This document shows positions 3,948-20,940 of a stretch of DNA of 23,672 nt, piece after piece; positions within the stretch are counted from its first letter, which is position 1, and each line of letters opens with the position of its first letter. A model generated the notes under the pieces. It saw only the letters and a program-made list of their open reading frames with translations. It was not told the DNA's origin and ran no database searches. The translations under genes were made by a program, and so were the position numbers. The DNA lies in IMG/VR virus record IMGVR_UViG_2534681899_000008. One strand, written 5' to 3'. The DNA is from a virus. Lineage: Duplodnaviria > Heunggongvirae > Uroviricota > Caudoviricetes.

Positions 3948-4801
3948 GCACCATCCTGAAATGGGCGGGTAATAAAACCGCCATTATGTCCGAACTGAAA
4001 AAATACCTTCCTGCTGGCCCGCGACTGGTTGAACCTTTCGCGGGTTCTTGTGCTGTGATGATGGCGACGGATTACCCCAGCTATCTGGTTGCGGATATTA
4101 ATCCTGATTTAATCAACCTCTATAAAAAGATTGCCGCTGATTGCGAAGCGTTTATATCTCGTGCCAAAGTTTTATTTGAGGAAGCAAACAGTGAGCTGGC
4201 TTATTACAACATAAGACAGGAGTTTAATTACTCAACTGAAATTACTGATTTCATGAAGGCGATATATTTCCTGTATCTCAATCGTCACGGTTACCGTGGT
4301 TTATGTCGCTATAACAAGAGCGGGTATTTCAACATTCCCTACGGTAATTATAAAAATCCGTATTTCCCTGAAAAAGAAATTCGCGCATTTGCAGAGAAAG
4401 CCCAGCGGGCAACGTTTATCTGCGCGAGCTTTGATGAAACGCTGGCGATGCTGCAGGTGGGGGATGTGGTGTATTGCGATCCGCCGTATGACGGTACGTT
4501 TTCCGGCTATCACACTGATGGTTTCACTGAAGATGACCAGTATCACCTGGCATCCATTCTTGAACATCGGTCATCAGAAGGACATCCGGTCATTGTTTCT
4601 AACAATGACACATCCCTGATTCGTTCGCTGTATCGCAATTTTACTCACCACTATATCAAGGCAAAACGCAGCATCGGCGTGTCAGCTGGCGAGGGTAAAT
4701 CTGCAACAGAAATCATTGCTGTTTCCGGGCCGAGCTGCTGGTTGGGATTTGATCCTTCGCGTGGCGTGGATAGTTCTGCCGTGTACGGAGTGTGTGTATG
4801 A
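3944..4801 (+). CDS. DNA adenine methyltransferase, Dam (D12) family
   Basis: [12 protein letters not shown]-terminus, [11 protein letters not shown]-binding-like motif and DPPY catalytic motif in the translation; GGAGGTG SD upstream. Confidence 0.85.
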
Positions 4802-7212
4802 GTCATGACGATATGAACAATTGCAGCGGCTTTAACGAGGCCGCCGCAGCATTTTCATGGAACGGCTCGAAAAAGGCCATTAACCCTTATCTGGACCCGG
4901 CGGAAGTTGCGCCGGAGTCTGCACTTTCAAACCTGATCACTCTGTACGCTGCCGATAACGAGCAGGAACAACTGCGCCGCGAGGCACTGAGTGAGCAGGT
5001 CTGGGAGCGTTATTTCTTTAATGAATCCCGTGATCCTGTCCAGCGCGAAATGGAGCAGGATAAGCTCATTAGCCGGGCAAAGCTGGCGCATGAGCAGCAG
5101 CGTTTTAATCCGGACATGGTCATTCTGGCGGACGTAAACGCCCAGCCTTCCCATATCAGCAAGCCGCTGATGCAACGTATTGAATACTTCAGCAGCCTGG
5201 GCAGGCCAAAGGCTTATTCCCGCTATTTGCGTGAGACGATTAAGCCATGTCTGGAGCGACTGGATTGTGTACGTGACAGTCAGCTATCTGTTTCTTTCCG
5301 TTTTATGGCAAGCCATCAAGGGCTGGAGGGGCTGCTGATCCTGCCTGAAATGAGCCAGGATCAGGTGAAACGCCTGTCCACCCTGGTAGCAGCGCATATG
5401 AGCATGTGTCTTGAGGACGCTTGTGGTGATTTGTATGCCACCGATGACGTTAAGCCAGAAGAAATCCGCAAGACATGGGAAAAGGTGGCAGCGGAAACCC
5501 TGCGTCTGGATGTTATCCCGCCTGCGTTTGAGAAACTTCGTCGGAAAAGAAACCGCCGCAAACCAGTGCCCTATGAACTCATCCCGGGTTCGCTGGCGCG
5601 TATGTTGTGTGCCGACTGGTGGTATCGGAAATTATGGAAGATGCGTTGCGAATGGCGGGAAGAGCAGTTGCGTGCTGTCTGCCTGGTCAGCAAAAAAGCA
5701 TCCCCCTATGTCAGCTATGAAGCCGTGATGCATAAACGTGAGCAGCGCCGTAAGTCGCTGGAGTTTTTTCGTTCTCATGAACTGGTGAACGAAGACGGCG
5801 ACACGCTGGATATGGAAGATGTGGTAAACGCCAGCAGCAGCAACCCGGCGCATCGCCGCAATGAGATGATGGCCTGTGTTAAAGGTCTGGAGCTTATCGC
5901 GGAAATGCGCAGTGACTGTGCCGTTTTCTACACTATCACCTGTCCGTCGCGTTTCCATTCCACGCTCAATAACGGCAGACCAAACCCGACCTGGACAAAC
6001 GCGACGGTAAGACAAAGTAGCGATTATCTGGTCGGCATGTTTGCTGCATTTCGTAAGGCTATGCATAAAGCCGAGTTGCGCTGGTATGGCGTGCGGGTAG
6101 CTGAGCCGCATCATGACGGTACTGTGCACTGGCATCTCATGTGTTTCATGCGTAAAAAAGACCGCCGCGCCATCACTGCATTACTGCGTAAGTTTGCCAT
6201 CCGTGAAGACCGCGAGGAGCTGGGCAATAACACGGGACCACGCTTTAAGTCTGAGCTGATAAACCCGCGCAAAGGTACGCCAACAAGCTATATCGCGAAA
6301 TACATCAGTAAGAACATTGACGGGCGTGGTCTGGCTGGGGAGATCAGCAAGGAAACGGGTAAATCCCTGCGTGATAACGCTGAATACGTTAATGCCTGGG
6401 CGTCTCTGCATCGTGTTCAGCAATTCCGCTTCTTTGGCATTCCGGGGCGTCAGGCTTACCGTGAACTGCGATTGCTGGCTGGTCAGGCGGCAAGGCAACA
6501 GGGTGACAAAAAAGCAGGTGCGCCGGTACTGGATAACCCGCGCCTTGATGCCATTCTGGCTGCTGCTGATGCTGGTTGTTTTGCCACCTATATCATGAAG
6601 CAGGGCGGCGTACTGGTTCCCCGTAAATATCACCTCATCAGAACCGCTTATGAAATCAACGAAGAGCCAACCGCCTATGGCGATCACGGTATTCGTATTT
6701 ATGGCATCTGGTCACCCATTGCAGAGGGCAAGATCTGCACTCATGCGGTGAAGTGGAAAATGGTTCGTAAGGCCGTTGACGTTCAGGAGGCGGCAGCCGA
6801 CCAGGGCGCTTGCGCCCCTTGGACTCGTGGCAATAACTGTCCCCTTGCTGAAAATTTGAACCAACAAGGGAAAAACAAATCAGCTGATGGGGACTCCAGA
6901 ACGGATATTACCCGTATGAATGACAAGGAGTTGCACGATTACCTGCACAGTATGAGCAAAAAAGATCGCCGGGAACTGGCAGCAAGGTTACGCCTGGTGA
7001 AACCGAAACGGCGTAAAGACTACAAACAGCGAATTACAGACCATCAGCGACAGCAGCTTGTCTATGAACTGAAGTCCAGAGGATTTGATGGCAGCGAGAA
7101 AGAGGTCGAGTTGCTCCTTCGCGGTGGCAGTATTCCGTCAGGAGCAGGCCTGCGTATCTTCTATCGGAACCAGCGTCTGCAGGAGGATGATAAATGGCGG
7201 AACATGTATTAA
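4798..7212 (+). CDS. A: Replication initiation endonuclease (P2 gpA / 186 A family, rolling-circle Rep)
   Basis: 804 aa; HWH (HUH-type) motif in [15 protein letters not shown] and paired tyrosines in [10 protein letters not shown] typical of superfamily I Rep proteins; ATG overlaps the dam stop (ATGA). Confidence 0.85.
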
Positions 7213-7365: not shown

Positions 7366-7554
7366 ATGCAGGACTATTTTTTGGAGTCTTTGAAGCTCCA
7401 GCGCATTGATTTTTTTCTTAAGCTTGTAGCGGCTAGTGAGTGTAGTGATGAAGAGAAGGGGCTGGCTTTGCAGTGGGTTTCTGAACTAACAGATGAACTC
7501 ATGGCAAAAATCAGAACCCACGAATACAACCGCTCAATGGATGTCATCAGTTGA
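7366..7554 (+). CDS. SOS-inducible small protein (62 aa), candidate Tum-like antirepressor
   Basis: ATG at 7366 preceded by GGAGG; first ORF downstream of the LexA box, where 186 carries tum. The longer track ORF from 7264 would overlap the operator and is rejected. Confidence 0.45.
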   Translation: MQDYFLESLKLQRIDFFLKLVAASECSDEEKGLALQWVSELTDELMAKIRTHEYNRSMDVIS

Positions 7555-7564
7555 GGTGACTTTT

Positions 7565-7798
7565 ATGCGCATTGAAATAATGATCGATAAAGAGCAGAAG
7601 ATTAGCCAGTCTACCCTGGACGCTCTGGAGTCCGAGCTTTACCGCAACCTGCAACCCATCTATCCCAAGACCGCTATCCGCATCCGTAAAGGGGCGGCAA
7701 ACGGCGTTGAGCTGAGTGGCTTAAAGCTTGATGAAGACAAAAAGCGGGTGATGGAAATTATGCAACAGGTTTGGGAAGACGACAGCTGGCTGCACTAA
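7565..7798 (+). CDS. DinI-family protein
   Basis: 77 aa beginning MRIEIMIDKEQ and ending QQVWEDDSWLH, resembling E. coli DinI in length and terminal motifs; GAGGTG SD 6 nt upstream. Confidence 0.75.
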   Translation: MRIEIMIDKEQKISQSTLDALESELYRNLQPIYPKTAIRIRKGAANGVELSGLKLDEDKKRVMEIMQQVWEDDSWLH

Positions 7799-8122
7799 GG
7801 AACGTTCCTGATGTAAGAACTTGAATCTGACGTCAGCAAGGTTGAACAACGAGAGTAGCGAGGCGTTAGCCATGGGTAAAAAAGACAGTAATCACCAGAT
7901 TATTTATCGGGGCTAGGTGCTGGAACGTTTAACCCTTGGCGACTGGGTCTTCTTTCAACGCCCAAAGGAGTGTGGCGGAGGTTTTTGGTTGGGCCGCATC
8001 TATGAAGACTGCTTCTGGCTTGAGCTGGAATTCCCCGTTTCGCTATATGACGGCCTGGGGTTTTTGATGGAAGTCACTAGGGTAGAGCAGAGAAGTGATG
8101 AGGTTGACGCGAATTATCCCCT

Positions 8123-8151
8123 GTTTGATTAAAAATGTATTAGCTTATAAT
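8123..8151 (+). promoter_or_regulatory. Candidate sigma70 promoter for the 203-aa cargo gene
   Basis: Perfect -10 TATAAT at 8146-8151 with GTTTGA at 8123-8128 (17-nt spacer), about 30 nt upstream of the ATG at 8181. Confidence 0.4.
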
Positions 8152-8180
8152 GGAATACTATTTTTGCAGGTGGGGGCGCA

Positions 8181-8792
8181 ATGGATTTAGTCTTTAAAGT
8201 TCTGGCTTCGTTGGGTGGGGTGTCTTTTGTTGCATCTGGCATATTTGTTTGGATCGGGAAAGTTTATTTAGAAAGATATAAGTCGCGGCTAAACAAAGAT
8301 ATTGCTGAATTTCAATCACAACTGAGTGCAACTAATGAAAGAATAAAGGCTAAGTTAGACAATTCTGTTTATGTAACGAAAGCGTATTTTGATAAGGAGT
8401 TATCAGCATATAGTCTCATTTGGAATTCGATGTTTGAAACCAGAGAAAGCGTGCTTAAGCTGAGGCCTGCGCTGGATCATGTTGACCCCAACGAACCATT
8501 TGAAGAGAGAAAATTTAGAAGGTTGAAAGTTTTTTTTGATGCATTTAACACTTTTGTTACAAGTGTTGAATCTAACAAACCGTTCATCTCACCAGAGGTT
8601 TATATAATCTTGGACCGTTTCCGGAAGGAATGCCTTTCAGAGTCAATATCGTTTAAGCATAGCGATCCAGAATTTGACGGGCAAAATTATTGGAAAGAGG
8701 CGGAGTTGAACTGTACAACCATCACCAAGCTTTTTGATGAGACGTGTGATGCAATTCGAGACAGGATGCACACATTAACTGTGGTTACGTAG
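8181..8792 (+). CDS. Membrane-anchored protein of unknown function (203 aa), cargo gene
   Basis: ATG preceded by GGTGGGGG; N-terminal hydrophobic helix LVFKVLASLGGVSFVASGIFVWIG then a charged soluble domain; AT-rich; located between the tum/dinI operon and the cos-like site, where P2 carries tin and old. Confidence 0.55.
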   Translation: MDLVFKVLASLGGVSFVASGIFVWIGKVYLERYKSRLNKDIAEFQSQLSATNERIKAKLDNSVYVTKAYFDKELSAYSLIWNSMFETRESVLKLRPALDHVDPNEPFEERKFRRLKVFFDAFNTFVTSVESNKPFISPEVYIILDRFRKECLSESISFKHSDPEFDGQNYWKEAELNCTTITKLFDETCDAIRDRMHTLTVVT

Positions 8793-8883
8793 GTTTCCAA
8801 AAAGTCTCGATGCCCGCTTTGGAGATTGTGCATGTCTATGCCGCATGAATCCGCATGATCGTTTGAGGATCGTTTTAGCTGAG

Positions 8884-8911
8884 GCCCGCCAGGAGTGGCG
8901 GGCTTTTGCTT
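8884..8911 (+). terminator. Rho-independent terminator candidate
   Basis: GCCCGCC / GGCGGGC 7-bp stem with 6-nt loop followed by TTTTGCTT. Confidence 0.5.
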
Positions 8912-8952
8912 ATGTCATGCAGGCGCATGAAAACCGCTACATAAAGCGGGCA

Positions 8953-8971
8953 GGCGTGGCGGGGATACGAT
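8953..8971. other. cos-like sequence (candidate cohesive-end site)
   Basis: GGCGTGGCGGGGATACGAT matches about 16 of 19 positions of the 186 cohesive end as I recall it (GGCGTGGCGGGGAAAGCAT; P2 GGCGAGGCGGGGAAAGCAC). Recall-based, not verified. Confidence 0.35.
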
Positions 8972-8998
8972 TGCGCGCAAGCATAGATTCTGTAATAT
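8971..8998 (+). promoter_or_regulatory. Candidate promoter for the 579-aa cargo gene
   Basis: TTGCGC (8971-8976), 16-nt spacer, TAATAT (8993-8998), about 35 nt upstream of ATG 9032. Confidence 0.3.
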
Positions 8999-9031
8999 GT
9001 ATGGCACATAGCAAATGACAAGGTGATTATT

Positions 9032-10771
9032 ATGCATGCGATCTTGAAACAATACGTCGAAGATCTTTCTAACCAATTTGCGATAGAAGAAGATGAATCG
9101 AAACTCTTCGAGTATTTTTGTAATTATGTTATTGCTTCTAAAAAGTATTTAGGACGATTTAGTCCTATCGATATCACTACTCAAGAGGATGATGCCTCAT
9201 TAGACGGAATTATCTTTCTTATTGATGGTGAATTAATAACTACTGTTGATGATGCTGAGGCGATATTTAAAACCCATAAAACATCATTGCCAGTGGAGTT
9301 AATACTTACTCAGATTAAATCTGGTGAGGCTTTTGTTAAATCAGATATTGCAAATTTCAAGATTGGCTTGGATGATTTTTTAAGTCTTAAACCGAAATTA
9401 CCAAATGGTATCTATAACACTCAAGCTATTGAAATATTGAAAGTAATATTTGCAAATGTAAAAAAAATTAAAAACAAAAAACCATCGCTTACAGTTCATT
9501 ATTGCACTAGTGGTACTTATGTTGAAGAGAGAGAAATTAAAGCTACATTTGATATAATTAAAAAATCATGCTTCGATACTGACTTTTTTGATTCTGTTGA
9601 CGTGAGACCTCTCGGGCGTAAAGAACTAATGGATATGTGGATATCCATAACCGAAAAAAATGAGGCTGAGTTACAGTTGATTGATTACATAGGTATCGAG
9701 GCTATGCCAGGTATCCCTCAATCATATATTGCAATTGTAAAAGCAAAGCATTTTATTGAGAAGCTTGCAAAAGATAGTGATGGAAAAATAAAAGAGTCAA
9801 TTTTTGAAGAAAATATACGTGCGTTCTTAGGAAGTGATAATAATGTTAATAATAAAATCTCCTCAACTTTAGAAGATAAAAAAATAAAAGCAAAACAATT
9901 TCCAGTGTTGAATAATGGAGTGACTATAATTACTCCAGAGTTATCTATACAACCAAACACAAAAGTTATAAATCTTACAAACTATCAAATTATTAATGGT
10001 TGTCAAACAACTAATACACTCTTCCATCATTACGATAATTTAAATGATGATGTTGAGATTGTTGTCAAATTTATAGAGTCTCAAGATGCTGATGTTGCAA
10101 GTAGCATAATTGAAGCAACAAATAGTCAATCAGCAATTGAGGGAGCAGCGTTTTTTGCATTGCGTGAAAAAGCTAAAATGGTGCAGAAATATTTCGATCT
10201 ACAGAGGAAAGACCCAAAACTGGAAAGTATATATTTTGAGCGGCGTGAAAATGAATATCGGCCATATGATATACAATCTACACGTATATATGATATTAAA
10301 GAACTGGCTCGTTGCTTCATATCTGTATTTAAGCGGAACCCGCACAATGCTGCTAGATATGTTAAAAAAGTACTTAGCGAAAGCGATAATATAATATTTG
10401 GTGAGGCCGATAATGAATGCGCATATTATACTGCGGCGTATATATGTTATAAGTATAATACTATGATTAACGGGCGAAGAGAAAATGCACAAAAGTATAA
10501 TAAATATAGATGGCATATTGCAATGTTATATCCTTGGGTCGTAAATAAAAAGGTTGAGAAAGTTGAATTAAATTCAAAGAAAATGAGTGCCTATTGTGAG
10601 CGTATTCTTAAAACATTTTATAACGACAACTATATTAAGCATTTTTCAAAATGCCATGAGATAATTGATGCTCTTGCTTTAGATAATGAGAATGGTGTTA
10701 CAGATGATCAACTAAAACGTGCACGATATACTACTAGTTTAATTGAAAAAGCTACTGAGATTTTGAAATAA
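9032..10771 (+). CDS. Large AT-rich cargo protein (579 aa), candidate anti-phage / abortive-infection protein (possibly AIPR-like); function unassigned
   Basis: Uninterrupted 1.74-kb ORF at roughly 30% GC by eye (backbone about 50%); AAGGTGA SD 5 nt upstream of ATG 9032; own promoter and terminator. No P-loop (so not OLD-like) and no YxDD (so not an Abi-P2-type reverse transcriptase). Motifs NNGVTIITPE and INGCQTT noted. Confidence 0.7.
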   Translation: MHAILKQYVEDLSNQFAIEEDESKLFEYFCNYVIASKKYLGRFSPIDITTQEDDASLDGIIFLIDGELITTVDDAEAIFKTHKTSLPVELILTQIKSGEAFVKSDIANFKIGLDDFLSLKPKLPNGIYNTQAIEILKVIFANVKKIKNKKPSLTVHYCTSGTYVEEREIKATFDIIKKSCFDTDFFDSVDVRPLGRKELMDMWISITEKNEAELQLIDYIGIEAMPGIPQSYIAIVKAKHFIEKLAKDSDGKIKESIFEENIRAFLGSDNNVNNKISSTLEDKKIKAKQFPVLNNGVTIITPELSIQPNTKVINLTNYQIINGCQTTNTLFHHYDNLNDDVEIVVKFIESQDADVASSIIEATNSQSAIEGAAFFALREKAKMVQKYFDLQRKDPKLESIYFERRENEYRPYDIQSTRIYDIKELARCFISVFKRNPHNAARYVKKVLSESDNIIFGEADNECAYYTAAYICYKYNTMINGRRENAQKYNKYRWHIAMLYPWVVNKKVEKVELNSKKMSAYCERILKTFYNDNYIKHFSKCHEIIDALALDNENGVTDDQLKRARYTTSLIEKATEILK

Positions 10772-10777
10772 ATGGAT

Positions 10778-10808
10778 GCAGCCCAAGGAAGGGCTGCTAA
10801 TTTTTATT
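10778..10808 (+). terminator. Rho-independent terminator between convergent cargo gene and Q
   Basis: GCAGCCC / GGGCTGC stem, 6-nt loop, followed by TAATTTTTATT; overlaps the Q stop codon on the opposite strand. Confidence 0.5.
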
Positions 10809-11835
10809 CGAAATGATACGAAAAAAAATTGATAATGTCCTCACCTAACCAATCATTAATCTCTGATATTCTTTTTTGTAAAGGTAATAGCTCATTCCTT
10901 ACAAAAACCTTACTAGCCTTCTCCACATCTCCAAATCCCCCAACATTATTAGGCATTATTCCCATCATCTGCGGCGGCACACGATGCGCCGCCATCATGT
11001 CATCCCGGCTGACGTTCTTAATATTCAAAAACTCATCCTTCGCCGCGACTTCTGACAACGGGATGATCTGAAGCCCGTCCTTTTTGCCGTTAGGCGAGTA
11101 CATAAACAGGTTGCGGAAATTGCCTGGTCCTTTAGCATTTTTCATCGCATTGCGGAGGTTGTTCACGTCCTCCTGATTCTGCGCGGCGTCGGTCATGTAC
11201 ATGATGAAGCCTGCATGGCTGCCGTTGATGTAATACTTACGGCGGAACAGCGTTGCGGACTCGTTGAGCAGGGCGGATGGAATGGCAGAAAGATAGCCGG
11301 GCAGGCCGTAGATCTCCTGGTTGATGTCCGGTTCCATCAGATGAAAAATGCTGCCTTTCGTGAACTGATACGGCTGCGTAGTTATGCCGTATTGCACAAA
11401 CCAGTAGGTATCCAGGTCTAATCCGCGTCGGGTGTATTTTGCCAGGGCAGGTTCAAGGGCGAGCACTTCACCGAAGCGGTTCGTGCGTTTCTCCAGGTAG
11501 GCGTTGCCAAATACCAGATAGTCCTGCACAAAACGTGAAAAAGCCTGCTGGCTGAGCAGCGGGTGGGGGATGTAGGTACTGGCCAGAATGTTGCACTTTA
11601 CTGCAATCGGGGAACTGTGATGCACGGCGGCGCGGAAGGTGCGAGCCAGACCGTCGAAACTCACTGGCGGCTCATACCAGCGATCTGTCTGTACGCATTC
11701 CACATAGTCCAGTAATTCTCGGCGGTCCAGAACAGGAACGGGATCGCCGAAGCTGAATGCTTCGGTTGTAGTTTGACTTTTAAGCTGGATCTGTTTCGTC
11801 GCCGCAGCGCGGTTCTTCTTACTCTTTCCCATCAA
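10804..11835 (-). CDS. Q: Portal (capsid portal) protein, P2 gpQ family
   Basis: 343 aa (P2 gpQ about 344 aa); immediately downstream of and start-overlapping the terminase ATPase gene on the same strand, as in the P2 P-Q operon. Confidence 0.8.
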   Translation of the reverse strand: MMGKSKKNRAAATKQIQLKSQTTTEAFSFGDPVPVLDRRELLDYVECVQTDRWYEPPVSFDGLARTFRAAVHHSSPIAVKCNILASTYIPHPLLSQQAFSRFVQDYLVFGNAYLEKRTNRFGEVLALEPALAKYTRRGLDLDTYWFVQYGITTQPYQFTKGSIFHLMEPDINQEIYGLPGYLSAIPSALLNESATLFRRKYYINGSHAGFIMYMTDAAQNQEDVNNLRNAMKNAKGPGNFRNLFMYSPNGKKDGLQIIPLSEVAAKDEFLNIKNVSRDDMMAAHRVPPQMMGIMPNNVGGFGDVEKASKVFVRNELLPLQKRISEINDWLGEDIINFFSYHFE

Positions 11836-16398: not shown

Positions 16399-16860
16399 AT
16401 GAAGTTTGTTGCGCCAGAACAGGCACCGGAACAGGCGGAAATCATCAGAAATACGCCGTTCTGGCCTGATGTGGACCTGTCGGAGTTTCGCAGTGTGATG
16501 CGCACTGACGGCACGGTGACGCAGCCGCGTTTAAAGCAGGTTGCGCTGTCGGCAATTTCGGAGGTCAACGCAGAGCTGTATGAGTTTCGCAGACGCCAGC
16601 AGATGCTGGGATATGCCTCGCTGGCAGAGGTTCCGGCGGAACAGCTGGACGGGAAAAGCGAGCGAATTCAGCACTATTTCAACGCGGTTTACTGCTGGGC
16701 TCGCGCCATGCTCAACGAACGTTACCAGGACTATGACGCCACGGCATCCGGTGTGAAGCGGGGCGAGGAACTGGCAGAAGCCAGCGGTGATTTGTGGCGT
16801 GACGCCCGCTGGGCCATCTGCCGGGTACCCGCAATATTGAACAGCTCGGCGATGCGCTGA
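16399..16860 (+). CDS. L: Head completion/stabilisation protein, P2 gpL family, possibly C-terminally altered
   Basis: ATG at 16399 preceded by AGGAGA; 153 aa versus 169 aa for P2 gpL; the next gene's frame opens inside its 3' end. Confidence 0.6.
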   Translation: MKFVAPEQAPEQAEIIRNTPFWPDVDLSEFRSVMRTDGTVTQPRLKQVALSAISEVNAELYEFRRRQQMLGYASLAEVPAEQLDGKSERIQHYFNAVYCWARAMLNERYQDYDATASGVKRGEELAEASGDLWRDARWAICRVPAILNSSAMR

Positions 16861-16880
16861 ACTATCTGGATGATAACGCC

Positions 16881-18929
16881 ATGTCGAAAGGGGCGGACAT
16901 CATTGATGTGATGCAGCGTCTGGGCGGTGTGGCTGACCGTCTGGATTATCGTAAAGCGGCGGCGCTGGGTTCCACCTTCCTGACACTGGGCGCTGCGCCG
17001 GAGGTTGCAGCCAGTGCAGCAAACGCGATGGTGCGTGAATTGTCTATTGCCACCATGCAGAGCAAGAGTTTTTTTGAAGGGATGAATCTGCTGAAACTCA
17101 ATCCTGAAGTGATTGAAAAACAGATGACGAAGGATGCGATGGGAACCATCCAGCGCGTGCTGGAGAAGGTGAATGCATTGCCGCAGGATAAGCGCCTGTC
17201 TGCTATGACCATGTTGTTTGGTAAAGAGTTTGGCGATGACGCGGCGAAACTGGCAAACAACCTGCCGGAGCTGCAGCGCCAGTTAAAACTAACAGCGGGC
17301 AATGATGCGCTCGGTTCCATGCAGAAAGAATCCGACATCAACAAGGATTCACTTTCTGCGCAGTGGTTGCTGGTCAAAACCGGAGCACAGAACACCTTCA
17401 GCAGCCTGGGCGAAACGCTGCGCCAGCCGCTGATGGATATTCTGTACATGGTGAAAAGCGTCACGGGGGCGTCGCGTCGCTGGGTGGAAGCTAACCCGGA
17501 ACTGACGGGCACACTGATGAAAGTAGCCGCTGTTGTGGCTGCTGTTACCGTGGGCCTCGGCACCCTAGCTGTGGTGTTGGCTGCTGTGCTGGGGCCGCTG
17601 GCAGTCATCCGTCTGGGATTCTCTGTACTGGGTATCAAAACGTTACCTTCCGTTGCGGCAGCAGTAACCCGAACCCGCAACGCGTTGTCCTGGCTGGCTG
17701 GCGCTCCACTGGCACTGCTGCGACGCGGGTTTGCTTCATCGGGCAAGGCCGCAGGTTTACTTACTGCGCCGTTGTCGTCTTTGCGCCGCACGGCATCACT
17801 GACGAGAAATGTCCTGAAAACTGTAGCAGGTGCGCCGGTTGCACTGTTGCGATCTGGATTATCCGGTTTACGTACTGTTGCTGTGATGTTTATGAATCCT
17901 CTGGCGGTACTGCGCGGTGGACTGGCTGCCGCAGGCGCGGTGCTTCGTGTGCTTGCATCCGGTCCGCTGGCGATGCTGCGCGTTGCCCTGTATGCCGTAT
18001 CTGGTCTGTTAGGTGCTCTGCTCAGTCCGATAGGTCTTGTGGTTACTGCACTGGCGGGCGTGGCGCTGGTTGTCTGGAAATACTGGCAACCCATCACCGC
18101 ATTTCTTGGTGGCGTGGTGGAAGGATTCAAAGCGGCGGCAGGTCCCGTCAGTGCAGCATTCGAACCGCTTAAGCCCGTGTTCCAGTGGATTGGCGACAAA
18201 GTACAGGCGCTGTGGGGCTGGTTTACTAATCTGCTGACGCCCGTTAAGTCGACCTCTGCCGAACTGCAGAGTGCAGCGGCAATGGGGCGGAGATTCGGGG
18301 AGGCACTGGCGGAAGGGCTGAATATGGTCATGCATCCGCTGGACTCCCTGAAATCCGGCGTTTCCTGGTTGCTGGAGAAGCTCGGCATTGTCAGTAAAGA
18401 GGCCGCAAAGGCAAAACTGCCGGAAAGCGTGACGCGTCAGCAACCTGCGACGGTGAATGCAGACGGTAAAGTGATGATGCCATCGGGTGGTTTTCCATCA
18501 TGGGGATATGGCTTTGCGGGGATGTATGACAGCGGCGGGTATATCCCGCGCGGGCAGTTTGGCATCGTCGGTGAAAACGGGCCGGAAATTGTTAACGGCC
18601 CGGCAAATGTGACCAGCCGGAGAAATACAGCTGCACTGGCTGCCGTTGTTGCCGGAATGATGGGCGTTGCTGCCGCACCAGCAGAGCTTCCACCGTTGCA
18701 CCCTTTGGCACTTCCCGCGAAAGGTGGAGAAGCAATTGTGAGTCGCGCAGCCACTGTGCCGCCCGTTTACAGGATTGAGGCACCGACGCAGATCATCATC
18801 CAGACGCAGCCAGGACAAAGTGCGCAGGATATTGCGCGGGAGGTGGCCCGCCAGCTTGATGAACGTGAACGCAGGTTGAAGGCAAAAGCCAGGAGTAACT
18901 ACAGCGATCAGGGGGGATACGACGCATGA
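16881..18929 (+). CDS. T: Tail tape measure protein, P2 gpT family, apparently N-terminally truncated
   Basis: 682 aa (P2 gpT 815 aa) with Ala/Leu-rich repeated segments (PLALLRRG, PVALLRSG, PLAVLRGG, PLAMLRVA); stop overlaps the U start. The frame is open from 16803, so the true 5' end is uncertain. Confidence 0.65.
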   Translation: MSKGADIIDVMQRLGGVADRLDYRKAAALGSTFLTLGAAPEVAASAANAMVRELSIATMQSKSFFEGMNLLKLNPEVIEKQMTKDAMGTIQRVLEKVNALPQDKRLSAMTMLFGKEFGDDAAKLANNLPELQRQLKLTAGNDALGSMQKESDINKDSLSAQWLLVKTGAQNTFSSLGETLRQPLMDILYMVKSVTGASRRWVEANPELTGTLMKVAAVVAAVTVGLGTLAVVLAAVLGPLAVIRLGFSVLGIKTLPSVAAAVTRTRNALSWLAGAPLALLRRGFASSGKAAGLLTAPLSSLRRTASLTRNVLKTVAGAPVALLRSGLSGLRTVAVMFMNPLAVLRGGLAAAGAVLRVLASGPLAMLRVALYAVSGLLGALLSPIGLVVTALAGVALVVWKYWQPITAFLGGVVEGFKAAAGPVSAAFEPLKPVFQWIGDKVQALWGWFTNLLTPVKSTSAELQSAAAMGRRFGEALAEGLNMVMHPLDSLKSGVSWLLEKLGIVSKEAAKAKLPESVTRQQPATVNADGKVMMPSGGFPSWGYGFAGMYDSGGYIPRGQFGIVGENGPEIVNGPANVTSRRNTAALAAVVAGMMGVAAAPAELPPLHPLALPAKGGEAIVSRAATVPPVYRIEAPTQIIIQTQPGQSAQDIAREVARQLDERERRLKAKARSNYSDQGGYDA

Positions 18930-19411
18930 TGATGGTGCTGGGATTGTACGTGTTTATGCTGCGCACCGTGCCGTATCAGGAGCTGCAGTATCAACGCAAC
19001 TGGCGACATGCGGCAAACAGCCGGGTAAACCGACGTCCGTCCACGCAGTTTCTGGGACCGGACAACGACATGCTGACGCTTTCCGGTGTTCTTATGCCGG
19101 AGATAACAGGTGGCAGGCTGTCGCTGCTGGCGCTGGAGCAGATGGCAGAACAGGGGAAAGCATGGCCCCTGATTGAAGGCAGCGGCACGATTTATGGCAT
19201 GTATGTGATTGAGGGACTGAATCAGACTAAAACGGAGTTTTTCCGCGACGGTATGCCGCGCCGGATTGAGTTCACCCTGTCGCTCAAACGGGTGGATGAA
19301 TCCCTGTCCGATATGTTCGGTGATCTCAGTGCGCAACTGAATAATCTGCAGGACATGGCAACGTCTGCTTTAAGCGATATCAGTAAAACGGTGGGAGGGC
19401 TGCTGTCGTGA
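18926..19411 (+). CDS. U: Tail protein, P2 gpU family
   Basis: 161 aa (P2 gpU 159 aa); ATGA overlap with T, followed by D. Confidence 0.75.
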   Translation: MMMVLGLYVFMLRTVPYQELQYQRNWRHAANSRVNRRPSTQFLGPDNDMLTLSGVLMPEITGGRLSLLALEQMAEQGKAWPLIEGSGTIYGMYVIEGLNQTKTEFFRDGMPRRIEFTLSLKRVDESLSDMFGDLSAQLNNLQDMATSALSDISKTVGGLLS

Positions 19412-20508
19412 ATTTCAGCTCTGAACTGCTTAACAAAGGCAACAAAACTCCCGCATTCAGCATCAGTATTGAGGGCAGGGATATCACCACTGTGCTGGAT
19501 AACCGCCTGATGAGTTTGACGCTGACGGACAATCGGGGCTTTGAAGCGGATCAGCTTGATCTGGAGCTGGACGACGCCGACGGAAAAATCGTGCTGCCGC
19601 GCCGTGGTGCGGTCATTACGCTGGCGCTGGGCTGGAAGGGGCAGCCGCTTTTCCCGAAAGGGACATTCACGGTGGACGAGATTGAACACACTGGCGCACC
19701 GGACCGCCTGACTATCCGGGCGCGAAGTGCTGATTTTCGTGAAACGCTGAATACCCGCCGTGAAAAGTCGTGGCACAAGACCACCGTTGGGGAAGTGGTG
19801 AAGGAAATAGCTGCGCGGCACAAACTGAAGATGGCATTGGGTAAAGACCTGTCAGATAAAACCGTGGAACATTTAGACCAGACCAATGAGAGTGACGGCA
19901 GTTTTCTGATGCGGCTGGCGCGCCAGTACGGTGCTATTGCGTCGGTGAAAAATGGCAATCTGTTATTCATCCGACAGGGACAGGGTAAAAGCGCCAGCGG
20001 TAAACCACTACCGGTGATCACTATCACACGTAAGGACGGCGACAGTCACCGCTTTACCCTGGCAGATCGCGGAGCTTACACGGGCGTAATTGCCAGCTGG
20101 TTGCATACTCGCGAACCCTCGAAGAAAGAAAGCACCACGGTGAAGCGTAAGCGCAGGACTAAGAAGCAGACGAAAGAGCCGGAAGCGAAGCAGGGCGATT
20201 ACCTGGTGGGTACGGATGAAAACGTGCTGGTACTTAATCGCACTTATGCCAACCGGAGCAACGCCGAACGAGCGGCGAAAATGCAGTGGGAACGCCTGCA
20301 ACGCGGCGTTGCGTCATTCTCGCTACAACTGGCGGAAGGTCGGGCAGATCTCTACACGGAAATGCCAGTGAAAGTCAGTGGTTTTAAACAGCCGATAGAT
20401 GATGCGGAATGGACCATTACGACTCTGACACATACCGTCAGCCCGGATAACGGTTTTACGACCAGTCTGGAGCTTGAAGTGAGGATTGATGATTTCGAAA
20501 TGGAATGA
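19408..20508 (+). CDS. D: Tail/late protein D, P2 gpD family
   Basis: 366 aa (P2 gpD 387 aa); apparent GTG start overlapping the U stop (GTGA); canonical position between U and ogr. Confidence 0.8.
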   Translation: MNFSSELLNKGNKTPAFSISIEGRDITTVLDNRLMSLTLTDNRGFEADQLDLELDDADGKIVLPRRGAVITLALGWKGQPLFPKGTFTVDEIEHTGAPDRLTIRARSADFRETLNTRREKSWHKTTVGEVVKEIAARHKLKMALGKDLSDKTVEHLDQTNESDGSFLMRLARQYGAIASVKNGNLLFIRQGQGKSASGKPLPVITITRKDGDSHRFTLADRGAYTGVIASWLHTREPSKKESTTVKRKRRTKKQTKEPEAKQGDYLVGTDENVLVLNRTYANRSNAERAAKMQWERLQRGVASFSLQLAEGRADLYTEMPVKVSGFKQPIDDAEWTITTLTHTVSPDNGFTTSLELEVRIDDFEME

Positions 20509-20598
20509 TTCTTCGCAATGGAGAACTTTTAAGTTTGCAAAATGGAATAATACGGTATCATTATTGTGAATTTAGCAAAAATGGGGAGAGCTCGAAAA

Positions 20599-20817
20599 AT
20601 GATGATTTGCCCACTGTGTGGAAGTGCCGCCCATACTCGCAGCAGTTTTCAGGTATCTTCATTGACCAAAGAGCGTTACAACCAGTGCCAGAACATTAAC
20701 TGCAGCCATACTTTTGTTACCCATGAAACTTTTGTTCGTTCGATTGCAACGCCAAAAGAGTCAAATCCGGTTCAGCCGCATCCAATGAAATCAGGACAGG
20801 TGGCGCTCTCTCTTTGA
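20599..20817 (+). CDS. ogr: Late gene transcriptional activator Ogr (Cys4 zinc finger)
   Basis: 72 aa MMICPLCGSAAHTRSS...CQNINCSHTF with C-x2-C-x22-C-x4-C spacing, closely resembling P2 Ogr as I recall it; last phage gene before the att-like repeat. Confidence 0.8.
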   Translation: MMICPLCGSAAHTRSSFQVSSLTKERYNQCQNINCSHTFVTHETFVRSIATPKESNPVQPHPMKSGQVALSL

Positions 20818-20839
20818 CGCTGCCGCCATTTTGTCGCCA
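20818..20839. repeat. Right copy of the candidate att core (attR)
   Basis: cgctgccgccattttgtcgcca, 20 of 22 identical to 19-40, immediately after the ogr stop codon. Confidence 0.4.
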
Positions 20840-20894
20840 TCGTTAAAAAGCAGTGCTTCTAACATCATGATTTTAAAAGGTATAAATTTCAGGC

Positions 20895-20940
20895 AACAAA
20901 AAACCCATCAACCTTGAACCGAAATGGCGGGGTTGATGGG
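20895..20940 (-). terminator. Rho-independent terminator candidate downstream of ybjL
   Basis: Minus-strand hairpin (CCCATCAACC / GGTTGATGGG, 10-bp stem) followed by a T6 run (plus-strand A-run at 20895-20903), about 110 nt beyond the ybjL stop. Confidence 0.4.

Follow-up and report, generated by a model that had tools for sequence, protein, structure and literature searches.

An autonomous one-gene moron encoding a predicted membrane-tethered four-helix bundle, and candidate anti-phage factor, in the pre-cos slot of a defective P2-like prophage

Within a 23,672-nucleotide stretch of viral DNA (IMG/VR record IMGVR_UViG_2534681899_000008; hereafter the window), we identified a 203-aa gene that is an autonomous 'moron' in a P2-like prophage, where it occupies the pre-cos slot of the cos-proximal hotspot (Table 1). 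Its own promoter drives transcription in the repressed prophage, when the lytic genes are silent, and charge bias and structure modelling predict that the product crosses the inner membrane once, leaving a very short N-terminus in the periplasm and a stalk and head in the cytoplasm. An anti-phage function is our best guess for this protein, held with confidence a little short of even.

Table 1. Coordinates of the pre-cos gene, its signals and its neighbours in the window
Feature	Coordinates	Strand	Description and basis
Small upstream gene, phrog_2100	7917-8132	+	71 aa here, 86 aa in LF82; function not assigned
Promoter-like site	8125-8151	+	-35 TTGATT at 8125-8130, 15-nt spacer, -10 TATAAT at 8146-8151
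Shine-Dalgarno-like site	8168-8176	+	AGGTGGGGG, 4-7 nt 5' of the ATG; read from the sequence
Pre-cos gene, coding sequence	8181-8792	+	ATG start, 203 aa; open reading frame and RefSeq CDS WP_001593243
Single transmembrane helix (codons)	8199-8258	+	Residues about 7-26, KVLASLGGVSFVASGIFVWIGK, rich in glycine and small residues; hydropathy
Globular head	8364-8789	+	Residues about 62-203; four helices and a two-strand bridge
Intrinsic-terminator-like hairpin	8877-8915	+	Core GCCCGCCA-GGAG-TGGCGGGC, then TTTTGCTT; folding
cos cohesive-end region	8953-8971		GGCGTGGCGGGGATACGAT; alignment with P2 cosR; where the right end of the phage genome meets the left
AbiU/AIPR abortive-infection gene	9023-10771	+	582 aa, 31.7% GC; PADLOC AbiU 1.2e-107, Pfam AIPR 1.8e-41

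Along the window, gpA (4792-7212) is followed by the pre-cos gene, by the cos region, whose sequence GGCGTGGCGGGGATACGAT occurs once, and by the portal gene (10804-11835). The pre-cos gene ends 160 nt before cos and has a DinI-type operon on its other side. An initial annotation of this DNA had placed the gene between an SOS operon and a cos-like site, in the equivalent of the slot that carries tin and old in P2; both placements were borne out, as the downstream sequence matches P2 cosR and P2 tin and old occupy the same interval between A and cosR. Correspondingly, the Cartapus record begins at its annotated cos and has a homologue of the pre-cos gene as its last gene. The prophage in the window is of the 186/Fels-2 type and has lost lysis and tail genes with the pre-cos gene left intact; it is now defective and can no longer make particles.

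The gene carries the marks of a moron, namely a promoter and a terminator (the latter being shared backbone), transcription in the lysogen and deviant base composition, as well as those of P2-hotspot cargo, namely a position between A and the portal gene Q beside cos and variable occupancy. Its GC content is 38.6%, against 50-53% for gpA and portal, in agreement with its earlier description as more AT-rich than the backbone. Among about 1160 backbone-matching E. coli genomes we found 41 P2-borne copies (about 4%), and sister prophages with the same AIPR gene hold in this slot either a 630-aa P-loop NTPase or 387-aa and 178-aa hypothetical proteins. The gene resembles P2 tin and old and other hotspot cargo in its slot between gpA and cos, patchy presence, deviant GC and expression in the lysogen, but it is without sequence relation to Tin or Old and lies on the strand opposite to that of their genes. 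These distributions bear also on whether the protein serves the phage life cycle, for example as a tether at the membrane during the entry, replication or packaging of DNA near cos. Although its adjacency to cos would suit such a role, and a cytoplasmic head anchored in the membrane could retain DNA or proteins of the replisome, the gene is confined to a small fraction of backbone genomes, gives way to unrelated genes in sister phages, differs in GC from the backbone and is expressed when the replication and late genes are not, and we regard a life-cycle role as very unlikely.

The LF82-type allele corresponds to P2-hotspot system 39, a single gene annotated '1 TM' with 103 occurrences, among the 169 hotspot 'systems' curated by Rousset et al. 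in 2022 (PMC9122126 Table S5B); its sequence is absent from the table of cloned systems in that work. About a third of the hotspot systems cloned there were antiviral (PMC9122126), as were most unknown loci of P4 (PMC13586616).

Direct reading of the sequence supports the initial annotation in reporting a perfect TATAAT box and a Shine-Dalgarno element for this gene. The best candidate -35 element matches the consensus at 4 of 6 positions, and the site was missing from the output of our consensus promoter scanner because its spacer is 15 nt, the scanner accepting only spacers of 16-18 nt. Alignment showed the promoter stretch to be near-identical across E. coli LF82, an Enterobacter prophage and a degraded STEC copy. 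Furthermore, published RNA-seq covers a copy in E. coli LF82 that is 97% identical in amino acids (CARTA_47/LF82_789), one of two Cartapus 'morons', which is transcribed 7-fold above prophage background with log2 FPKM values of 5.5, 7.2, 8.6, 9.0 and 10.5 over five conditions, rising from 5.5 in LB to 8.6 after 6 h in medium and 10.5 after 6 h in macrophages (PMC9928086). Over the same conditions the LF82 portal gene stays flat at log2 FPKM of about 2.5-3, and the gene immediately upstream of CARTA_47 reaches 2.7 in 6-h broth (PMC9928086). Given this excess of about 60-fold over the upstream gene in 6-h broth, transcription must start in the interval between the two, which backs a promoter belonging to the pre-cos gene. 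Control by LexA was considered and rejected: inspection by eye found no CTGT-N8-ACAG box near the promoter, and expression in LF82 is unlike that of the SOS-type upstream genes.

The terminator required a partial revision. Folding recovered the hairpin that had been described as the gene's own, with a GC-rich stem at 8877-8910 and TTTTGCTT directly 3' of it, and the hairpin is kept in 4 of 4 aligned loci. It lies, however, within a cos-proximal segment (8828-8980) common to many P2-like phages whatever their cargo, and is therefore a backbone element rather than a possession of the pre-cos gene. That the terminator scanner missed it is probably due to the ability of the stem to extend into the T-run.

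Comparison of E. coli and Enterobacter alleles (dS about 0.8) gave a dN/dS of 0.10-0.16, about 0.12; the gene is under purifying selection and is not a chance open reading frame. This result also bears on the upstream phrog_2100 gene, with which the pre-cos gene might form a two-gene cassette of a toxin-antitoxin-like or sensor-effector kind. The two genes are adjacent on the same strand, and the phrog_2100 region occurs in 41 E. coli genomes, equal to the number of P2-borne copies of the pre-cos gene. In six Enterobacter prophage loci, however, the phrog_2100 gene is frameshifted and uncalled, whereas the pre-cos gene there is intact and selectively maintained; the expression gap in LF82 broth, the catalogue entry of Rousset et al. 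as a single-gene system, and the small ORFs upstream of distant homologues also argue against a cassette, as these frequent 60-90-aa ORFs are mutually unrelated and unrelated to phrog_2100. The phrog_2100 gene probably accompanies the pre-cos gene in E. coli without being needed by it, and we consider a two-gene cassette a slim prospect. With no conserved small partner found in the contexts examined, and with the independence from AbiU described below, the earlier view of a single-gene unit stands.

The initial annotation was right to treat this gene as cargo but left out a second cargo gene across cos, encoding AbiU/AIPR. The two are easily mistaken for a two-gene system, being separated by 232 nt on the same strand and both AT-rich, and lactococcal AbiU has reportedly been described with a second, modulating gene, so that the protein could be conceived of as an accessory subunit or regulator of AbiU. 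Yet the cos cleavage site and the terminator lie between the two genes, placing them at opposite ends of the packaged genome. Moreover, the same AbiU/AIPR allele is found without the pre-cos gene (H3-H9), the pre-cos gene is found without AbiU, and AbiU is replaced beside it by at least 14 other post-cos cargoes. Post-cos partners besides AbiU/AIPR include DUF4145, RT+STM3845, OLD-like, AAA_21+RloB and SLFN/HATPase genes, as well as ShosA, PDC-M03, PDC-S59, PDC-S49 and PDC-S33. Obligate co-occurrence was not found, each gene occurring alone, and in searches with the protein neither the AIPR domain (PF10592) nor the PADLOC model for AbiU scored at E<1. The pre-cos gene is independent of the adjacent AbiU; an accessory role is largely refuted by this distribution, and we give it next to no credence. 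The P2 hotspot accordingly consists of a slot before cos and a slot after it, each exchanged separately from the other, which bears on how hotspot 'systems' are to be delimited.

Hydropathy analysis identified one hydrophobic segment in the protein, at residues about 7-26, and none elsewhere, in keeping with the single N-terminal transmembrane helix and the charged soluble domain expected from the initial annotation, which had also called for a topology prediction. The segment is preceded by one and followed by five lysine or arginine residues, and such residues are likewise more numerous after the helix in 120 of 124 relatives (mean 0.4 before, 3.2 after), a charge bias that places the head in the cytoplasm (N-out/C-in). 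An AlphaFold2 model (pLDDT 92.4) comprises the membrane helix, a long stalk helix, whose length varies across the family, and a head in the form of a four-helix bundle. In the model, the head helices span residues 67-92, 107-131, 138-160 and 167-198, and the head is closed by a two-strand bridge pairing 63-65 with 199-201. Residues conserved in the head are E73, R95-P96, P134-F135, E154 and I192-R193-x-R195, of which E73, R95, E154, R193 and R195 are predicted to form a polar patch. The charge of the head is acidic to neutral and not strongly basic.

The initial annotation had been unable to assign a family, and profile and structure searches (Pfam, PADLOC, NCBIfam, PDB and Foldseek) gave none, nor did they reveal the confident morphogenetic or housekeeping homologue that would have refuted the initial annotation. 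Against Pfam, PADLOC and NCBIfam the protein returned only sub-threshold coiled-coil noise, with nothing at E<1 in PADLOC, and 45 diverse relatives had no Pfam match and only scattered chance-level PADLOC matches. A sequence-profile search of the PDB gave no match at E<=1, and a PHROGs scan identified the protein as the unannotated phrog_26391. The best structural matches of the model were sensor kinases, chemoreceptors, a FAT domain and talin, with Foldseek E-values of at least 0.025; as modelled, the fold is a generic four-helix bundle without a catalytic, toxic or pore-forming signature. Several specific identities were also rejected. Alignment with hhalign gave a probability of 0.2% for HP1 orf1 (a 205-aa protein of a P2-family phage, drawn from the BFVD list) and of 0.1% for PdpSau using the 45-member profile; the Rx4-6H histidine of HEPN-type Abi proteins (AbiV, AbiD/F, DUF4145) is not conserved; and the new P4 systems named in PMC13586616 show no resemblance to the protein. 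Its accession numbers were not found in the searchable full text of the literature, nor is it present in those supplementary files of the DefensePredictor paper that were searched.

Phages also encode membrane proteins of superinfection exclusion, such as P22 SieA, HK97 gp15 and T4 Imm, which are small inner-membrane proteins made from the prophage or early in infection that guard against incoming phage. They are not known to be homologous to the pre-cos protein. Parts lying in the periplasm or within the membrane mediate the action of several of them, whereas the conserved domain of the pre-cos protein is predicted to be cytoplasmic. Lactococcal AbiP and AbiC and PdpSau of S. aureus prophages are alike in being encoded by one plasmid- or prophage-borne gene, in having no recognisable enzymatic domain, and in combining an N-terminal membrane helix with a largely cytoplasmic bulk, the arrangement predicted here (PMC13064643, PMC10127798). 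PdpSau is furthermore encoded by an accessory gene of prophages that has a variable locus next to it, and is the only one of the three for which infection-linked membrane perturbation has been described. The pre-cos protein is nonetheless without detectable homology to PdpSau (by hhalign) or to the PADLOC AbiC models, and its modelled head is an all-helical four-helix bundle, whereas a nucleic-acid-binding or OB-like region is reported for AbiP, AbiC and PdpSau. An up-down bundle continuous with a membrane helix is shared with sensor domains of the 4HB_MCP type, including the ligand-binding domain of Tar and Tsr, TorS and Adeh_2942. Those domains are periplasmic, are flanked by two membrane helices and pass signals to a module in the cytoplasm; the pre-cos protein, in contrast, has a single membrane helix, lacks an output domain and is predicted to hold its bundle in the cytoplasm, and at 7-10% sequence identity with no Pfam match the likeness is one of fold class only.

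Relatives of the protein form 927 clusters at 50% identity and are always stand-alone proteins of about 200 aa, ranging across many phyla from Enterobacteriaceae to Firmicutes, Bacteroidota, Planctomycetota and Nitrospirota; a pattern search for loci based on a narrower alignment returned 11 genomic and no viral ones. In mobile elements, a relative adjoins the CI repressor gene of Pseudomonas phage Riah, others come after the integrase gene, one in a Lactiplantibacillus element of PICI-like type and one in a cf-PICI-like element, and another separates terS from terL in Clostridium phage Maintenon; at one further locus (L062) a Shedu-type SduA_C gene is found at a distance of about 4 kb. Homologues inside satellite-like elements, together with the location of the gene beside cos, the sole region that P2 shares with P4 satellites, might suggest a factor serving the P2-like phage against host defences or P4-type satellites, and hotspots can carry anti-defence genes, albeit in low numbers (PMC13586616). 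Such a counter-defence or phage-versus-satellite function is improbable in our estimation, as the gene is expressed in the repressed lysogen with lytic genes silent, is retained in a defective, particle-less prophage, and has many chromosomal homologues without phage context.

The neighbours of these chromosomal homologues are mostly housekeeping genes, and PADLOC models (1e-5) matched 2 of 78 neighbouring ORFs of distant ones, with no defence-island enrichment found around them among about 20 loci sampled. Two homologues, 37% identical to each other, both lie directly 3' of a gene for an HtrA-type Trypsin/PDZ protease, in one case with PspC nearby, and Peptidase_S41 is also among the homologue neighbours. 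These contexts would fit a lysogenic-conversion or host-fitness factor that helps the host under stress, be it of the envelope, of stationary phase or of intracellular life, for instance as a scaffold or regulator of some membrane process. The rise of the LF82 copy from LB to 6 h in macrophages, the resemblance of the model to signalling and adaptor bundles, and the presence of non-defence cargo in the P2 hotspot (for instance partition systems or cytolethal distending toxin) lend further support to this possibility. Conversely, cassette-like occupancy of a defence-dominated slot and accessory positions in phages and satellites typify genes of inter-virus conflict. In LF82, the SOS-type neighbours and the DUF4145 gene also rise in macrophages. 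Induction of the pre-cos gene may consequently represent a general de-repression of AT-rich or SOS-linked prophage genes. On this evidence we consider a host-fitness role unlikely, though a serious contender.

The anti-phage reading remains our best guess, given that the usual cargo of the hotspot consists of known or candidate defence genes, that the gene is transcribed in the lysogen and kept in a defective prophage, and that relatives are found at accessory sites in other temperate phages and in satellite-like elements. The lack of similarity to defence families, the generic bundle, the scarcity of defence-model neighbours and the envelope-protease neighbours are neutral or count against it, and the expression rise in cell-culture medium and macrophages would be unneeded by a phage sensor, a host-fitness role fitting that rise equally well. 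Under the anti-phage reading, the protein would be a one-gene factor guarding the lysogen against superinfecting phages at the cytoplasmic face of the inner membrane. Its bundle head may bind a phage component that appears at the membrane as DNA enters or early in the infection, and such binding could either block that step directly, as in exclusion, or induce oligomerisation of the stalk and membrane helix, which would perturb the membrane and abort the infection. That the protein founds an unrecognised class of one-gene, non-enzymatic, membrane-tethered immune proteins, which sense an early phage event and travel as swappable cargo, is a broader proposition that we put forward tentatively and think rather doubtful.

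Under any of these readings, about 100 RefSeq-type annotations ('valyl-tRNA synthetase', 'hypothetical') could be corrected. Should the function prove to be anti-phage, the protein would represent a defence family of very small, membrane-tethered and domain-poor proteins, whose hundreds of divergent members are spread over many phyla and are missed by the current PADLOC models for defence annotation, and would offer a simple system in which a non-enzymatic helical bundle senses or blocks infection at the membrane. If it instead serves host fitness, the roughly 30-fold rise seen inside macrophages for the copy in LF82, a Crohn's-associated strain, would mark the gene as a candidate means by which the prophage contributes to intracellular life.

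The window matched the E. coli FDN-11 genome (NZ_CP158143) at 100% identity, and holds a P2-like prophage of the 186/Fels-2 type flanked by rcdA and ybjL. The prophage is defective: it lacks genes for lysis, baseplate, tail fibre, sheath and tube, and a head-completion gene directly abuts a 5'-truncated tape-measure pseudogene (L001 17267-18668; L065 3535-7953). Both hotspot cargo genes, encoding WP_001593243 and AbiU/AIPR, are intact despite this decay.

Gene order and sequence elements of the prophage, in window coordinates
Feature	Position	Strand	Remarks
Integrase, CI, CII, Fil, Dam			first genes in prophage order
gpA replication endonuclease	4792-7212
Small gene			between gpA and DinI-family gene
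DinI-family gene	7493-7798
phrog_2100 small gene	7917-8132	+
Best -35 element	8125-8130		TTGATT
-10 element	8146-8151		TATAAT
WP_001593243 ORF	8181-8792	+	203 codons, ATG start
Conserved cos-proximal segment	8828-8980		common to many P2-like phages
phrog_28685 ORF	8845-9018	+	57 aa
Hairpin (T-run after it)	8877-8910		GC-rich
cos match	8953-8971		GGCGTGGCGGGGATACGAT
AbiU/AIPR gene	9023-10771	+	582 aa; 31.7% GC; PADLOC AbiU 1.2e-107
Portal and terminase	after AIPR gene	opposite to AIPR
Region of the head-completion and truncated tape-measure genes	about 16400-20900

All of the elements that the initial annotation ascribed to the gene were recovered. Its perfect TATAAT element is present, at a spacing of 15 nt from the best -35 hexamer; a consensus promoter scanner was silent on this strand because it demands a spacer of 16-18 nt. 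A Shine-Dalgarno sequence, AGGTGGGGG, stands just before the ATG, and the gene is AT-rich relative to the backbone (38.6% GC versus 50-53% for gpA and portal). The terminator also exists, as a hairpin with a T-run about 85 nt past the stop codon, but is a backbone element and not part of the cassette, since it lies inside the cos-proximal segment that P2-like phages share whatever their cargo. The cos match was identified by alignment to the P2 right cohesive end, and the curated record of Cartapus, a P2-like prophage of E. coli LF82, starts at its annotated cos and has the WP_001593243 homologue as its last gene. Given that tin and old of P2 fill the interval between A and cosR, the proposed tin/old-equivalent slot near a cos-like site is accurate, and can be refined by the presence of a second cargo gene, AbiU/AIPR, immediately across cos. 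The phrog_28685 ORF, whose Enterobacter version has 78 aa, runs across the cos cleavage site and shares sequence with the terminator hairpin; it is probably not a gene, though a PHROG family exists for it.

Published LF82 transcriptomes (Misson et al. 2023, PMC9928086) provide expression data for the Cartapus homologue's locus, LF82_789, listed as CARTA_47 in their S1 table and encoding a protein 97% identical to WP_001593243. It is one of just two Cartapus 'morons', at 7-fold over prophage background. Mean log2 FPKM values over the five conditions were 5.5 in LB, 7.2 and 8.6 after 1 h and 6 h in medium, and 9.0 and 10.5 after 1 h and 6 h in macrophages, such that the gene is already on in broth and rises about 30-fold inside macrophages. 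The corresponding values for CARTA_46, the phrog_2100 gene directly upstream, were 3.2, 3.4, 2.7, 5.0 and 7.6, and the portal gene stayed at about 2.5-3 in every condition. The difference between CARTA_47 and CARTA_46 places a transcription start between them, in the interval that holds the promoter-like site; over that stretch LF82 and the window show a single base difference. Also in the S1 table, CARTA_44-46 (small gene, DinI and phrog_2100) show no activity in broth but rise 30- to 100-fold in macrophages, and look like an SOS-type unit. The pattern of CARTA_1, the post-cos DUF4145 gene, tracks that of CARTA_47, for which read-through across cos or a separate promoter are both possible.

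The cos cleavage site and the terminator intervene between the gene and AbiU, placing the two at opposite ends of the packaged genome. Further, the same AIPR allele occurs in prophages with other contents in the pre-cos slot: ECCWS199 has two hypotheticals there, and Survcare253 a 630-aa P-loop NTPase. Conversely, across 27 loci carrying the WP_001593243 gene, post-cos cargo takes at least 14 forms, including AbiU/AIPR, DUF4145, RT+STM3845, OLD-like ATPase-TOPRIM, AAA_21+RloB, SLFN/HATPase, ShosA, PDC-M03A/B, PDC-S59, PDC-S49, PDC-S33 and unknowns. The P2 hotspot is therefore two independently exchangeable slots, either side of cos, and an accessory role to AbiU is highly improbable. A functional pair with phrog_2100 is also improbable, if slightly less so: the phrog_2100 region occurs in 41 E. 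coli genomes, as expected if it accompanied every P2-borne copy, but six prophage loci of Enterobacter, where the WP_001593243 homologue is intact, have it frameshifted by a 1-nt insertion and uncalled (L004 5690-6000). Its expression is moreover uncoupled in LF82 (PMC9928086), and the small ORFs that precede distant homologues bear no relation to it. No conserved neighbour was found among those homologues.

The single N-terminal transmembrane helix described in the initial annotation corresponds to one hydropathy segment at residues about 7-26. An AlphaFold2 model (pLDDT 92.4; 45-sequence alignment) comprises a short N-terminal helix, a helix at 14-61 forming the rest of the membrane segment and a stalk, and a head of helices 67-92, 107-131, 138-160 and 167-198. 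Strands at 63-65, of two-residue scale, and 199-201 pair, which makes the head a four-helix bundle of closed form. Invariant or near-invariant residues among 45 diverse members are F70, E73, Y77, W81, R95, P96, P134, F135, E154, I192, R193 and R195; the bundle lacks a catalytic or pore-forming hallmark. Small residues abound in the membrane helix (LGGVSFVASG), and the stalk varies in length, some relatives having 30-60 additional residues. Lysine and arginine number one in the 15 residues before the membrane segment and five after it, and an excess after the segment recurs in 120 of the 124 family members in which a hydrophobic segment is clear (means 0.4 before and 3.2 after). One member, P0098, has an extra signal-like N-terminal segment ahead of the conserved helix. 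The charge bias and the P0098 segment both point to a predicted topology with the N-terminus out and the bundle in the cytoplasm.

The family is larger than a word-indexed search suggested (17 clusters, all enterobacterial), as an exhaustive profile search raised the count to 927 representatives at E<=1e-3, of which 389 pass E<=1e-10; almost all are 180-240 aa long and align over their whole length. Members occur in metagenome-assembled Deltaproteobacteria, Geobacteraceae, Planctomycetota, Verrucomicrobiota, Nitrospinae, Nitrospira and Acidobacteriota, in Bacteroidota, including one complete Tenacibaculum genome, and in a Pseudomonas phage, a Clostridium phage and a plasmid-borne Lactiplantibacillus element. 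Consistent with the earlier failure to assign a family, no member matched Pfam, PADLOC or NCBIfam above noise, the family profile matched no PDB sequence, and Foldseek returned generic helical bundles only (best E-value 0.025 against PDB, 0.024 against viral models). Many identical or near-identical copies (RefSeq records H10, H14-H16, H18-H24, H54 and others) bear the RefSeq name 'valyl-tRNA synthetase', a misannotation that traces to a match between the stalk and the PF10458 coiled-coil arm below threshold (E 0.009; 16.7 bits, cutoff 25.9). Outside the P2 group the closest relative is P0019 (37% identity), which directly follows an integrase gene and an AlpA-like one (L061 4457-12621), in an element whose D5-type primase and ClpP-capsid fusion make it look like a capsid-forming PICI-type satellite. 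L. plantarum plasmid NZ_CP032651 (L057 2781-5654) carries a PICI-like module in two tandem copies, each with HTH genes, an integrase and a VapE primase; ahead of the family member in the copy examined lies a 233-aa protein with predicted membrane segments and no assigned function.

An anti-phage role is the likeliest candidate function of the protein. Three points in its favour are the slot, with the cargo it usually holds, the fact that the lysogen expresses the gene autonomously, and retention in a prophage no longer able to make particles. A fourth is where relatives lie in other mobile elements: they adjoin the CI repressor in Pseudomonas phage Riah, lie just after the integrase in the PICI-like Lactiplantibacillus element and in the cf-PICI-like element with D5 primase and ClpP-capsid fusion, separate terS from terL in a Clostridium phage, and, on one metagenomic contig, lie about 4 kb from a Shedu-type nuclease gene. 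The architecture resembles that of AbiP and AbiC of Lactococcus and PdpSau of S. aureus prophages, single-gene proteins with an N-terminal anchor and a cytoplasmic domain (PMC13064643, PMC10127798). All three abort infection; depolarisation of the membrane accompanies this in PdpSau, and a phage tail protein acts as the trigger for AbiP (PMC13064643, PMC10127798). Homology to PdpSau was rejected by hhalign. Beyond the anatomy and the expression, which are shown, we infer sensing and effector steps in which the cytoplasmic bundle would recognise a phage component at the membrane, and the stalk and small-residue membrane helix would then either block infection directly or oligomerise and damage the membrane.

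A role in host fitness or linked to the envelope is less probable, but is kept alive by several observations: no homology to known defence proteins was found, the bundle is plain, the LF82 copy rises in macrophages, and only 2 of 78 ORFs neighbouring distant homologues at 11 genomic loci matched PADLOC at 1e-5, most of the 78 being ordinary metabolic genes. In addition, two environmental homologues, 37% identical to one another, each lie directly downstream of, and on the same strand as, an HtrA-type Trypsin/PDZ protease gene (L014 4413-6681, L015; L063 4634-6663), with a PspC-domain gene about 700 nt downstream in L063, which could point to a connection with the envelope for some family members. 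A counter-defence or satellite-conflict factor is unlikely, and a role in the phage life cycle very unlikely.

The gene was found in 52 of 5,426 complete E. coli genomes, with 41 copies in P2-like prophages by matching counts. With about 1,160 genomes showing a match to at least part of the backbone query, the cassette is present in roughly 4% of related prophages. The other 11 copies are about 90% identical, several in STEC strains; the one examined, in STEC strain 2012EL-2448, has frameshifts and a 17-nt deletion (L003 4940-5840) and keeps the promoter and cos-proximal flank within a degraded island adjoining an integrase fragment and a DprA gene. Between E. coli-type and Enterobacter-type alleles (83% amino acid identity), dS is about 0.8 and dN about 0.1, with dN/dS of 0.10-0.16.

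Rousset et al. 2022 (PMC9122126) surveyed the same locus, listing the exact arrangement of the window, 'hypothetical + DinI + hypothetical + AIPR', with WP_001593243 (Table S5A), and curating the protein as system 39, a single gene with no domain, '1 TM' and 103 occurrences (Table S5B); its sequence is absent from their cloned-systems table. Beyond that study we found no literature mention of the protein. Gene and location being already catalogued, the observation is not in itself new; in the literature consulted, we found no description of how large and broad the family is, of a confident structural model with topology, or of the evidence that the gene is independent of AbiU. If a defence gene, it would belong with the single-gene, membrane-anchored exclusion and abortive-infection proteins of prophage hotspots rather than to a new category. 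It is a sound and cheap candidate for a plaque assay, plausible to a specialist rather than surprising.
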